Sequence record: OZ035799.1
Origin: Justusliebigvirus alia
Length of the DNA stretch: 64,000 nucleotides
Direction: 5' to 3' (one strand)
Shown piece after piece: positions 56,072-58,770 of this stretch (within the stretch, counting starts at the first letter, position 1; each line of letters opens with the position of its first letter). Position numbers and translations under genes: made by a program. A model generated the notes under the pieces. It was not told the DNA's origin. It saw nothing but the letters and a program-made list of their open reading frames with translations, and ran no database searches.

Positions 56072-56965
56072 ATGAAAGTTAGTATTCTACATGGTGTTGA
56101 CTGTTATGTTACTGATGTAGACGTTAAAGTCTTTACATTCTCTGGTGGAGAACAACATGTTCAACTAGACACGAATCTATCAGGTTTCAATCATGCTACA
56201 GACAGAATCTTACTCTCTTTAGAAGTAAGATCTGCTAAAGACTTGATGACTTTGGTTATGACTAAGAATGCATTGGACAATATGCTATATCATAAACCAT
56301 ATTGTGTTGATTTGCTCATGTTGTATGTGCCATATGCACGACAAGACAGAGTGTGTGAACCTGGGGAAGCATTCGGAGTTAAAGCATTTGCTTCTATAAT
56401 TAATTCATTAAATTTCTCACGTGTTATCGTTGCTGATCCACATAGTGATGTTACTCCAGCGGTGTTTGACAGACTCTGTGTAATACCTCAAGAAGAGATT
56501 GCTTACGAAACTTTAAAGTGGAAGTTACGTATGGAGAATTTTGCTCTTGTTAGTCCTGATGGTGGTGCTCTTAAGAAAATATTTAAATTATCTAAGAAAA
56601 TGTCTTTAGATGTGTTCTGTGCAGAGAAGGTTAGAGATACTGCAACAGGTGCTATTGTTCGTACAGACATTTCGGTACAGGATTTCAATAAGCGTAACCT
56701 GATGATCGTAGATGATATCTGTGACGGCGGTAGAACTTTTATTGAATTGGCTAAAGTGCTACGTGCTCGTAACGCAGGTAAGATTGAGTTATATGTTACA
56801 CACGGTATCTTTTCTAAAGGTCTTAAAGAGTTAAGTGAGCACTTTGACTGCATTCATTCTCTTAACGTGTGGGAAGATAACATCCAAGAAGATTTCGGTG
56901 TTCTTGTTAAGAATCAGTCAGATTTGCAACAACAAATTGTATCTCCATACGTGTGGAATTTTTAA
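56072..56965 (+). CDS. ribose-phosphate pyrophosphokinase (Prs) family protein; candidate ADPR-pyrophosphate synthetase (Adps) of NARP1
   Basis: Prs motifs YVPYARQDR, VSPDGGALKK, LMIVDDICDGGRT; adjacent to NAMPT-like gene. Confidence 0.75.
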   Translation: MKVSILHGVDCYVTDVDVKVFTFSGGEQHVQLDTNLSGFNHATDRILLSLEVRSAKDLMTLVMTKNALDNMLYHKPYCVDLLMLYVPYARQDRVCEPGEAFGVKAFASIINSLNFSRVIVADPHSDVTPAVFDRLCVIPQEEIAYETLKWKLRMENFALVSPDGGALKKIFKLSKKMSLDVFCAEKVRDTATGAIVRTDISVQDFNKRNLMIVDDICDGGRTFIELAKVLRARNAGKIELYVTHGIFSKGLKELSEHFDCIHSLNVWEDNIQEDFGVLVKNQSDLQQQIVSPYVWNF

Positions 56966-57036
56966 ATAATAAGTGTTGACAATAGGGAGTATGCTTAGTA
57001 AGATACTCCCACACTAACAAACAAGGAGACATAACT

Positions 57037-58770
57037 ATGAATATTTTTGCACCTTTTGCTACTGATTGGTATAAACCTGGTCACAAGCAGATGTACAACC
57101 AAAATACAAAACTTATTTTCTCTAATTTAACTCCTCGTAATGATAAAAACTTTGCACACTATGCAGATCGTGAAGCACGTGGTGTAATTGTTTTAGGTAT
57201 TCGTCGAGCAGTTACTGATGCTCTTGTAACTATGTGGGATAGCTTCTTTAAAATGTCTCGTAGTGCAGCAGTAAATAAATTTTATCGTATGTCTAAAAAT
57301 GCATTAGGTGCTTCTGCTCCTTCTGCTGAATGTTGGGGAGAATTGCACGATTTAGGTTATCTTCCGCTGGAAGTTCGATCTCTGCCAGAAGGTGTTTTGT
57401 GTCCTATTGGTGTTCCTGTGTTTACTGTGCATAATACTTTAGAAAAATTCTTTTGGTTAACTAACTATGTGGAAACACTATTGTCAGATGAAACTTGGAA
57501 GACAATGACTAATGCTACAGCAGCTTTTCAGTATAAGCGTATTGCTATGGCATATGCGATGGCAACGTGTGATAATATTGATCACGTTAACTTCCAGTGT
57601 CATGATTTTAGCCTACGTGGTTTAAGTAATATCGAAGATGGTTATAAGAGTGGTATCGCTCATTTGGCATCGTTCACAGGAACAGATAATATTCTGGCTA
57701 TTGAAACTGTGCATGATTATTATGGTATTGATTATGATCAGTTTGTTGCAGGTTCTATTCCGGCAACAGAACATTCAGTAGCAACGACTAACATTGGAGC
57801 TATTGTTGAAGATCTGAAGAAACATTTCCCACATCTTAAAGATGATGTTGATGGGCTTCGTTATGTAGCAGAGAAAGAGTTTCTTCGCCGCTATATTGAA
57901 GAAATTGTTCCAGAAGGTTTTTGTTCATATGTAGCAGATTCTTATGACTACTGGGCTGTCTTGACTCGCATTCTGGTAGAATTGAAAGAATCCATTATGT
58001 CACGAAATGGTCGTCTTGTTATTCGTCCAGATTCAGGAGATCCGGTTAAAGTTGTTGCAGGATACAATGTTGAATCTTTTGATAACTATGAAGACCTTTT
58101 AAATAATGGTATTGCTACAGCCACTGAAGTAGTTCATTTGGCTGATGTTAATAAGTATTACAATGTTCTTCAGGATTGCAGTGTTGCTGATTGTATTGAT
58201 GAAACTTATGAGATTCCTTATTGTGAAGCAGTAGGTTCTATTCAAATCCTTTGGGAAGTATTTGGTGGTACTATCAACCGAAAAGGCTACAAGGTTCTTG
58301 ATCAGCACATCGGTATGATTTATGGTGATTCTATTACTGTTGAACGAGAACACGAGATCTTACGCCGACTGAAGAAGAAAGGTTTTGCAGCTTCCAATAT
58401 TGTATTTGGTGTTGGTAGTTATACTTATCAGTTCAATACACGAGATACTTTTGGTTTTGCTGTTAAAGCAACAGGTAGTATCATCGGTGAACACGAAATT
58501 TTGGTAAGTAAGGAGCCTAAAACTGATCCTGGTAAACGCTCTGCAAAAGGTTTTATTAAGGTTGTTAAGGATACAAATGGTAAACTTTCTCTTGTGGATA
58601 ATCTTTCTTTTAAAGATATCCAAGATGAAGACAATGAGTTAAAAGTTATCTTCAGGGATGGTACGGTTATTACACCACAAGTAGAAGGACGTGATGAAAC
58701 ATTTACTGATATCCGTAACCGTGTTGATGTAGAGGTTCTTCGTACTATGGGAACCATCCAGGTTGACTAA
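57037..58770 (+). CDS. nicotinamide phosphoribosyltransferase family protein (NadV/NAMPT-like; candidate Namat of NARP1)
   Basis: motifs PEGVLCPIGVPVFTVHNT, FWLTNYVETLL, HDFSLRG, SIPATEHS matching NAMPT family. Confidence 0.8.
   Translation: MNIFAPFATDWYKPGHKQMYNQNTKLIFSNLTPRNDKNFAHYADREARGVIVLGIRRAVTDALVTMWDSFFKMSRSAAVNKFYRMSKNALGASAPSAECWGELHDLGYLPLEVRSLPEGVLCPIGVPVFTVHNTLEKFFWLTNYVETLLSDETWKTMTNATAAFQYKRIAMAYAMATCDNIDHVNFQCHDFSLRGLSNIEDGYKSGIAHLASFTGTDNILAIETVHDYYGIDYDQFVAGSIPATEHSVATTNIGAIVEDLKKHFPHLKDDVDGLRYVAEKEFLRRYIEEIVPEGFCSYVADSYDYWAVLTRILVELKESIMSRNGRLVIRPDSGDPVKVVAGYNVESFDNYEDLLNNGIATATEVVHLADVNKYYNVLQDCSVADCIDETYEIPYCEAVGSIQILWEVFGGTINRKGYKVLDQHIGMIYGDSITVEREHEILRRLKKKGFAASNIVFGVGSYTYQFNTRDTFGFAVKATGSIIGEHEILVSKEPKTDPGKRSAKGFIKVVKDTNGKLSLVDNLSFKDIQDEDNELKVIFRDGTVITPQVEGRDETFTDIRNRVDVEVLRTMGTIQVD

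Follow-up and report, generated by a model that had tools for sequence, protein, structure and literature searches.

A predicted two-gene NARP1 pathway for rebuilding NAD+ in the Escherichia coli phage Justusliebigvirus alia

Two adjacent genes at positions 56072-58770 of the phage Justusliebigvirus alia raise the question of whether they serve classical NAD+ salvage, by way of nicotinamide mononucleotide (NMN), or rebuild NAD+ directly after a host defense system has destroyed it. The window analyzed here, a stretch of 64,000 nucleotides, is the last 64 kb of this phi92-like E. coli myophage of the Stephanstirmvirinae, and 3.3 kb queried from it was 100% identical to OZ035770.1, likewise J. 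alia. The first gene, adps (56072..56965, + strand, 297 amino acids (aa), ATG start), encodes a Prs-like protein that we predict to be an ADP-ribose pyrophosphate synthetase (Adps). The second, namat (57037..58770, + strand, 577 aa, ATG start), encodes a Nampt-like protein that we predict to be a nicotinamide ADP-ribose transferase (Namat). Both open reading frames (ORFs) are intact, lie next to each other on the same strand with a spacer of 71 bp, and are each preceded by an AGGAGA ribosome-binding site. A sequence-only reading of the window had proposed a Prs-like and a Nampt-like gene in exactly this arrangement, and the motifs that it quoted were found in the first ORF (YVPYARQDR, aa 85-93; LMIVDDICDGGRT, aa 210-222) and in the second (FWLTNYVETLL, 139-149; HDFSLRG, 189-195; SIPATEHS, 240-247). 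Its family assignments were far above chance, both for the first ORF (TIGR01251 ribP_PPkin, E 2e-34; phrog_619, E 1e-90) and for the second (PF04095, E 2.5e-37; NF006629, E 5e-138; phrog_448, E 1e-187).

The second of the two routes is the NAD+ reconstitution pathway 1 (NARP1), a two-enzyme phage pathway described in 2024 that rebuilds NAD+ after NAD+-destroying defense and was counted in 859 phages, 4.3% of the set surveyed (Osterman et al., 10.1101/2024.02.11.579819). In NARP1, Adps turns ADP-ribose (ADPR) plus ATP into ADPR-pyrophosphate (ADPR-PP), and Namat joins ADPR-PP and nicotinamide to give NAD+; for the Namat of phage SPbetaL1, ADPR-PP was shown to be preferred over phosphoribosyl pyrophosphate (PRPP), and the SPbetaL1 Adps reportedly does not act as a PRPP synthetase (Prs) (10.1101/2024.02.11.579819). 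The pathway restored NAD+ and plating under SIR2-HerA, DSR1/2, Thoeris I or SEFIR, as found with Bas63, Fado and transplanted operons (Osterman et al.). Enzyme activity has been published for the Adps homologues of SPbetaL1, ICP1 and DyoEdafos, and structures for the SPbetaL1 Namat (crystals 9w5w/9w5x; PMC12774641) and for the ICP1 Adps in apo, substrate and product states (PMC13586617). The gene pair is itself already known, being listed in the supplementary tables of the discovery paper: Supplementary Table 1 of Osterman et al. holds MN850632_00231 (alia), FR775895_00103 (phi92) and MZ501100_00239 (PaulScherrer) with the entry “Namat within 10 genes: Yes”, and Supplementary Table 2 holds MN850632_00232, FR775895_00104 and MZ501100_00240 as “Adps-associated”. 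Our combined findings suggest that the pair is very probably a functional NARP1 module that works as published.

The first protein could be either a Prs or an Adps. It matches Pribosyltran, Pribosyl_synth and TIGR01251, and on the broad TIGR01251 model it scores 118.8 bits against a cutoff of 113. On all Prs equivalog and subfamily models, however, it reaches 50-99 bits against cutoffs of 296-536. Its best scores among these were 99.3 bits (cutoff 297) and 98.1 bits (cutoff 296), on models where E. coli Prs scores 532.6 and 422.7. The validated Adps enzymes behave likewise on the curated models (Bas63, 138.5 and 100.8; ICP1, 98 and 80; E. coli Prs, 423-533). The window protein thus shows neither of the marks of a canonical Prs, a match to an equivalog model and a full length with the C-terminal regulatory helices. 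We then placed it in a neighbor-joining tree of 16 phage Adps-type proteins and seven bacterial Prs, which included the studied enzymes of Bas63, SPbetaL1, ICP1 and DyoEdafos and for which retrieved loci and Supplementary Table 1 of Osterman et al. supplied the sequences; bootstrap support was taken as the direct count of specific bipartitions among the replicates. In 60/60 bootstraps, Adps and Prs were separated and the window protein fell with the Adps, whereas its finer placement among the Adps of Gram-negative phages was recovered in just 13/60. Local identity was 38% to ICP1, 36% to Bas63, 32% to SPbetaL1 and 32% to DyoEdafos, versus 21-28% to the seven bacterial Prs.

The residues that distinguish the two families point the same way. 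The PP-loop region of the window Adps, DDICDGGRTF (aa 214-223; 56711..56740, + strand), is of the Adps type and the same as that of Bas63 Adps; ICP1 has DDICDGAASF, and true Prs have DDM(I/V)DT(G/A)GT(L/I/M). Three of its residues, C217, G219 and F223, are those typical of Adps, the Prs counterparts being I/V, T and L/I/M. In the ICP1 Adps this loop has been repurposed for binding the ATP donor (PMC13586617). At the C-terminus, the motif of the Prs helices alpha11-alpha12, LS(I/G)A.L.A.AI..I....SVS.LF, has no counterpart by sequence in the window Adps. Hidden Markov model matches to this protein of 297 residues stop at residue 250-259, which corresponds to about position 253 in profiles of 309, and the tail of 35 residues past the last conserved strand resembles neither Prs nor other Adps. 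At the other end, the alignment shows that the window Adps is without the N-terminal beta-alpha (strand-helix) unit of Prs. Compared with E. coli Prs (4s2u/7xmu), the protein keeps the PRPS fold and the acceptor-site residues (F, R, H, D, K, DD), whereas the N-terminal beta-alpha unit, DLHA..QIQGFF, DDM(I/V)DT(G/A)GT and the C-terminal filament and allosteric helices are absent or altered.

The protein also retains what an active enzyme would need. The Lys186 codon (56627..56629, + strand) aligns with the catalytic hairpin lysine, K185 in ICP1 and K162 in SPbetaL1, and activity was abolished by K185A in the ICP1 Adps (PMC13586617) and by K162A in the SPbetaL1 Adps (10.1101/2024.02.11.579819). 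Matches to functional residues of the ICP1 enzyme comprise F23, R90, H124, D163, K186, D214, D215, C217, D218, G219, T222 and F223; among them are the equivalents of the acceptor residues R87, H121, D161, D212, D213 and D216 of ICP1, which correspond to R90, H124, D163, D214, D215 and D218. Since K186 and the acceptor residues are common to Prs as well, they indicate an active enzyme and not its specificity. At 38-40% identity the ICP1 Adps is among the closest validated relatives; the two have DPHSDVTPA, KxRD and DDICDG in common and both are without the Prs alpha11-12 module, and they differ in the PP loop (GAAS in ICP1, GGRT in alia). The gene neighborhood is in line with this assignment, with namat starting 71 bp downstream on the same strand; a Namat homologue lies close by in 97% of the Adps clade (Osterman et al., 10.1101/2024.02.11.579819).

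The second protein, which matches PF04095 and NF006629, poses the corresponding question of Nampt or Namat. Its best match among solved structures is the SPbetaL1 Namat (9w5x/9w5w, E 9e-118), with human and rat NAMPT at about 3e-48. A further PDB entry, 9ke8/9keo, a 495-aa “nicotinamide phosphoribosyltransferase”, matches it with E 3e-100, far better than mammalian NAMPT does, and has in the region discussed below the sequence GAQTYQRNTRD, which is neither of the Namat consensus nor of the Nampt GGGLLQ type. For the tree of this family, we used the Namats of Bas63, Alf5, ICP1, DyoEdafos, SPbetaL1 and Erwinia phage pEp_SNUABM_01, together with the NadV proteins of KP15, Aes012 and Vibrio phage 6E35-1b; Osterman et al. 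label those of KP15 and Aes012 “Nmnat-associated”. These NadVs represent NARP2, in which a Nampt works with an NMN adenylyltransferase (NMNAT). The split between Namats and NARP2 NadVs was found in 100/100 bootstraps, with the window protein among the Namats. Placement of both proteins against true Prs and NadV was the check that the sequence-only reading had set for its NARP1 proposal; the proteins group with Adps and Namat, respectively, and this, together with the family signatures and the lack of an NMNAT partner, supports the proposal.

Two elements of the substrate site set Namats apart. The first is the selectivity-clamp helix (SCH), for which the published consensus is GS-X-Phi1-X-Phi2-X-Phi3-TRD with an aromatic X at positions 3 and 7 (PMC12774641). 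The window protein has GSYTYQFNTRD here (aa 460-470; 58414..58446, + strand), which fits the consensus with the aromatics Y462, Y464 and F466 and with T, Q and N as Phi1, Phi2 and Phi3. The same region reads GSFTYQYNTRD in SPbetaL1, GSYTYQYMTRD in Bas63, GGGLLQ..(T/D/N)RD in NARP2 NadVs and GSGGALLQKLTRD in rat and human NAMPT. The second element is the selectivity-clamp loop (SCL), which is variable and in which an Arg, Lys or Tyr at position 3 supplies, or is followed by, the residue that stacks on the adenine (PMC12774641). By alignment, the SCL region of the window protein is NDKNFAHYADREAR (aa 35-48; 57139..57180, + strand), reading N35-D-K37-N-F39; the Lys at position 3, also seen in Bas63 (SDKWF), fits the rule for that position, but the next residue is Asn and not an aromatic. 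The loop is far longer than in the NARP2 NadV proteins.

The catalytic core is kept as well (D10, Y12, F191, R194, D217, H246, R330, D332 and G430-D431; in SPbetaL1, D13, Y15, F189, R192, D215, the catalytic His, R306, D308 and G360-D361). Relative to the SPbetaL1 Namat, a protein of 491 aa, the alignment shows two insertions. Insertion 1, at about aa 251-283 (57787..57885, + strand), is common to the pEp_SNUABM_01 Namat and in part to that of Bas63, and is absent in SPbetaL1, ICP1 and DyoEdafos. Insertion 2, at about aa 343-399 (58063..58233, + strand), has no Pfam match; at its site the Bas63/Alf5 Namat has a longer insertion and pEp_SNUABM_01 a similar one. The enzyme can function with an insertion here, since Bas63 NARP1 is active in vivo.

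Automated naming does not help to decide between the two functions. NF006629 is presented as an equivalog with a cutoff of 405, yet it scores the window Namat at 460.6, the Namats of Bas63 and DyoEdafos at 468 and 501, and the NadVs of KP15 and Aes012 at 464 and 454. We rejected it as a discriminator because it accepts validated Namats and Nmnat-associated NadVs alike, so that its match to the window protein is uninformative. Under this model (PRK09198), all such proteins are named “nicotinate phosphoribosyltransferase”, and because it scores both kinds alike, automatic annotation currently cannot separate NARP1 from NARP2 enzymes.

Which partner genes accompany the pair? The sequence-only reading had remarked on the lack of an NMNAT nearby, and the same is true of the genome in its entirety. 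No NMNAT is annotated in the 147-kb RefSeq entry for alia, NC_052655, and when E. coli NadR and NadD served as tblastn queries, neither the window nor the full genome gave more than chance matches (E >= 1.5). One alia product annotated as “nucleotidyltransferase”, gp038, was rejected as a candidate, having a weak match to the PolyA_pol head and not being an NMNAT. Without an NMNAT in the genome, NARP2 is excluded, and so is NARP3 given that no PnuC is annotated either; for NARP3, tblastn found no NadR homologue, and PnuC is missing from the annotation, no sequence search having been made for it. Some published operons carry an additional gene, namely NARP1-AP of Vibrio phage Gary, with the order Adps, Adpp Macro phosphatase and Namat, and the RyDEP-associated NARP1 of DyoEdafos. 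These have the same core pair as alia, in which no third gene stands between adps and namat and the 71-bp spacer leaves no room for one. Pfam matches to Macro (Adpp) or RyR (RyDEP) were absent from the flanking ORFs scanned, five upstream on the - strand and both downstream. Judged by these scanned ORFs, the operon is predicted to be the plain two-gene form of NARP1. Elsewhere in the genome, alia gp113 (NC_052655.1 81674-81889, 71 aa) is named “phosphoribosylpyrophosphate synthetase” in RefSeq and was rejected as a Prs candidate: Pfam gave no match to it, the window contains no exact copy of its first 40 bases, and the name is probably a misannotation propagated by name transfer and unrelated to the real Prs-like gene.

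Among the closest of the studied systems is the NARP1 of Bas63 (JohannRWettstein; genes 79-80, QXV81770.1 and QXV81771.1). The two phages infect the same host species, and their operons share the adps-namat order, a short spacer, an identical PP loop, an SCH of the type GSYTYQ[FY]xTRD, the Lys at SCL position 3, a large Namat insertion at the same site (the alia insertion 2 being the shorter) and the lack of an NMNAT partner. They differ in identity, at 36% for Adps and about 39-40% for Namat (a figure obtained from close Felixounavirus relatives of Bas63), in phage family (Felixounavirus versus Justusliebigvirus), in SCL position 4 (Trp in Bas63, Asn in alia) and in location, with the Bas63 operon between nrd genes and rIIA/B and the alia operon flanked by an RNA-repair block and by an array of 15 tRNA genes. 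With SPbetaL1, the alia proteins share all residues of the nicotinamide/NMN site, the SCH aromatics and the catalytic Lys of Adps. The SPbetaL1 Namat, in contrast, is without both insertions and uses Arg40 as the SCL stacking residue, and its Adps, 32% identical, has the PP loop DDLSSFGGTF of a Gram-positive phage subtype. The proteins of NARP2 and the canonical NadV and NAMPT share the Nampt fold family and the catalytic residues with the window Namat, and differ from it by their GGGLLQ..RD in the SCH region, a short SCL, an NMNAT partner and no Adps.

The proposed course of events follows the published pathway. A NAD+-depleting defense system (such as SIR2-HerA, DSR1/2, type I Thoeris or SEFIR) would split NAD+ into ADP-ribose and nicotinamide. 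Adps would then move the beta,gamma-pyrophosphate of ATP to ADP-ribose, at the 1'' hydroxyl of its distal ribose, giving ADPR-PP, and Namat would replace the pyrophosphate of ADPR-PP by nicotinamide, yielding NAD+ directly without NMN or an adenylyltransferase. This chemistry and the anti-defense phenotype are carried over by analogy from the homologues of Bas63, SPbetaL1, Fado, ICP1 and DyoEdafos, which are 32-41% identical, and we infer that the alia pair has the same activity and would likewise protect the phage.

Several points weigh against this conclusion. Identity to biochemically validated enzymes is just 32-41%, and our literature search found no experiment on the NARP1 of any Justusliebigvirus or phi92-like phage, PaulScherrer included. 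In the Namat, SCL position 4 is Asn and not the expected adenine-stacking aromatic, the nearest aromatic being F39 at position 5. In the Adps, two of the adenine or lid contacts of the ICP1 enzyme are changed (F92 to C95 and F223 to E225). Neither ICP1 F92 nor F223 is conserved in the Adps of Bas63 or SPbetaL1 either, while the adenine-stacking F18 of ICP1 is kept as F23 in the window; at the F92 position, Bas63, SPbetaL1 and DyoEdafos have Met, Glu or a gap, so that F92 is not a family-wide feature. Finally, Namat homologues still make NMN from PRPP in vitro (PMC12774641; 10.1101/2024.02.11.579819), and some classical activity is therefore possible for the window Namat.

Could the pair carry out NARP1 chemistry and yet serve mainly the housekeeping of the phage? 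It would then recycle ADP-ribose-type products and nicotinamide released by the NAD+ consumers of the phage itself. As the main role we regard this as improbable, although it is compatible with a NARP1 assignment. The candidate consumer is a Sir2-family protein of 270 aa (20544-21356, - strand), possibly acting with the RNA ligase and phosphoesterase genes that adjoin the operon. That the phage encodes a sirtuin is clear from its matches (PF02146, E 1.6e-22; phrog_2162, E 2.5e-104) and its GAGLSADSGIRTFR and VHVHG motifs, and phage sirtuins of the same clade have been predicted to take part in RNA repair that depends on NAD+; in rV5-type phages, the predicted partners are a T4-like RNA ligase, MazG and a calcineurin-like phosphoesterase (Iyer et al. 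2022, PMC9503650). In alia, genes for an RNA ligase and a phosphoesterase do lie upstream of adps, on the opposite strand. By tblastn, homologues of the sirtuin were found in 982 phage records, comprising T5-like phages including T5 itself, TrudiRoth/Bas30, which is a NARP3 phage, and Stephanstirmvirinae, as well as phages annotated as similar to rV5-like ones and the large Vibrio phages nt-1 and phi-ST2. Some phage groups with the sirtuin homologue thus also carry a NAD+-rebuilding pathway, such as NARP3 in Bas30. This support is correlative, however, and the sirtuin gene lies about 35 kb from the operon. In addition, the predicted KptA-like product, ADPR 1''-2'' cyclic phosphate, is no substrate for Adps unless processed further, ADPR-1P is not used by NARP1, and ADPR-PP was observed by Osterman et al. 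solely when a host defense system was present. There is an equally slim chance that, in phi92-like and rV5-like phages generally, NARP1 belongs to a phage-autonomous NAD+ economy in which the sirtuin and the neighboring RNA-repair genes spend NAD+ and Adps and Namat close the loop, and that the lineage-specific Namat insertions (aa 251-283 and 343-399) adapt the enzyme to it, for instance by regulating it or by letting it accept more kinds of ADPR derivative.

Less probable still is classical salvage, in which a true PRPP synthetase and a true Nampt (NadV) would make NMN, starting from ribose-5-phosphate, ATP and nicotinamide, and the host NadR or PncC/NadD would complete NAD+. The names given by Pfam, NCBIfam and RefSeq agree with it, TIGR01251 was passed, albeit by 6 bits, as was the NF006629 “equivalog”, and the use of PRPP by Namat homologues in vitro is in its favor. 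Against it stand the separation of the first protein from all seven bacterial Prs in the tree and its scores far below the Prs cutoffs, its Adps PP loop and missing Prs C-terminal helices, and, in the second protein, the Namat clamp motif in place of GGGLLQ, the one model that speaks for NadV being non-discriminating. The reported lack of Prs activity in the SPbetaL1 homologue and the preference of Namat for ADPR-PP over PRPP also make classical salvage unlikely. A NARP2-type arrangement, in which the Nampt would act with an NMNAT, with or without a Nudix protein, encoded elsewhere as in Vibrio phage KVP40, is barely credible: the second protein does belong to the wider Nampt family, and about 20% of phage homologues are of NARP2 type (Osterman et al.), but neither the annotation nor tblastn with NadR and NadD reveals an NMNAT in the alia genome, the window Namat is separate from the KP15, Aes012 and 6E35-1b NadVs in every bootstrap, and an Adps homologue lies directly upstream, in agreement with the published “Adps-associated” label.

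The pair is conserved in related phages. At least 95% nucleotide identity to it was found in 55 records of the genus. Compared with phages ECGD1 and VEcB, adps has 18 and 5 synonymous and 2 and 1 non-synonymous differences, and namat has 37 and 30 synonymous and 6 and 2 non-synonymous ones. The ratios of non-synonymous to synonymous change (pN/pS) were 0.03-0.055 for adps and 0.02-0.046 for namat, and both genes are under strong purifying selection. The arrangement is also found at a greater distance: in Erwinia phage pEp_SNUABM_01 (Vequintavirinae), the Namat is only 52% identical, yet the layout is the same, with an RNA ligase and a phosphoesterase on the - strand followed by adps, namat and tRNAs on the + strand.

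The assignment has consequences for annotation and for the use of such phages. The names supplied by RefSeq/PGAP, Pfam, NCBIfam NF006629 and PHROGs (ribose-phosphate pyrophosphokinase; nicotinamide or nicotinate phosphoribosyltransferase) imply the wrong chemistry. Two sequence rules could replace them: a PP loop of DDICDGG.TF together with an absent Prs C-terminus for Adps, and GS-arom-T-arom-Q-arom-x-TRD (arom, aromatic residue) in place of GGGLLQ for Namat. Phi92-like phages are in use against E. coli. For phage therapy, a two-gene NARP1 predicts resistance to NAD+ depletion of the SIR2, TIR and SEFIR types. The aRES product ADPR-1P is unusable by NARP1 without a Macro phosphatase, according to the aRES paper, whose supplementary files do not include alia or phi92. 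Since no Macro phosphatase was found in the alia operon, sensitivity to aRES-type defense is predicted, and, provided that the published result is correct, alia NARP1 should not protect against aRES. The discovery value of the locus is small, as NARP1 was published in 2024, structures exist for both enzymes and the alia genes are in the original catalogue.

The operon occupies a distinct position in the window. As the first gene of a rightward block, adps follows a 420-bp divergent intergenic region at which coding switches from the - to the + strand and the sign of the GC skew flips. Upstream of this region lie the genes of a T4 Rnl1-type RNA ligase (310 aa, PF09511, E 2.8e-14) and a calcineurin-like phosphoesterase (183 aa, phrog_547, E 8.5e-55), at 51680-53165 on the - strand. 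Downstream of namat, two small ORFs, one Cys-rich (73 aa, 58842-59063, phrog_37033) and one of 88 aa (59243-59509, phrog_15056), are followed by the array of 15 tRNA genes (59517-62140, + strand), which begins about 750 bp past namat and comprises Met, Leu, Ser x2, Lys, Tyr, Asn, Thr, Gly, Gln, Pro, Phe, Leu, Met and Ile. NARP1 is thus flanked by an RNA-repair block on one side and by the tRNA array on the other.

Consensus scans, which report pattern matches, gave a candidate sigma-70-like promoter upstream of adps, TTGACT-17-TAGAGT (56004..56032, + strand; 9/12), which falls within the 420-bp divergent region and is preceded by a very AT-rich stretch, and a promoter-like site between adps and namat, TTGACA-17-TAAGAT (56976..57004, + strand; 10/12). 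The pattern TTGACW-N16-18-TAAGAT has five exact matches in the window, at 2001, 35845 (- strand), 56976, 58763 and 59184, versus 0.15 expected from shuffles. Three of the five copies lie around the NARP1 operon, ahead of namat, right past the namat stop and ahead of the 88-aa ORF. The pattern may represent a class of phage promoter.

Database records related to the pair yielded some further observations. Four “Campylobacter phage” records (MG065656.1 and three others; host given as Campylobacter jejuni) contain an adps/namat region that is about 98-99% identical, which looks like host mislabeling or contamination. Of the 547 positions of the phrog_12872 profile, the first 222 match the window Adps and positions 221-536 match the window Namat, and Shigella phage Ag3 has one ORF (FJ373894_00125; Osterman Supplementary Table 1) with an N-terminal part of Adps and a C-terminal part of Namat; such joined ORFs are either real fusions or frameshifted assemblies. 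In the ICP1 isolate 2018_Mat_001 (MW794174.1, ~4730-4910), an in-frame stop falls near the N-terminus of Namat (…EVTHV*SNFTNR…), and the annotated Namat coding sequence starts downstream at a GTG and is without the D-x-Y motif and the SCL region. Other ICP1 entries in Supplementary Table 2 of Osterman et al. have the Namat split into two ORFs, so that the enzyme may be inactivated in some ICP1 isolates, or sequencing errors may be present.

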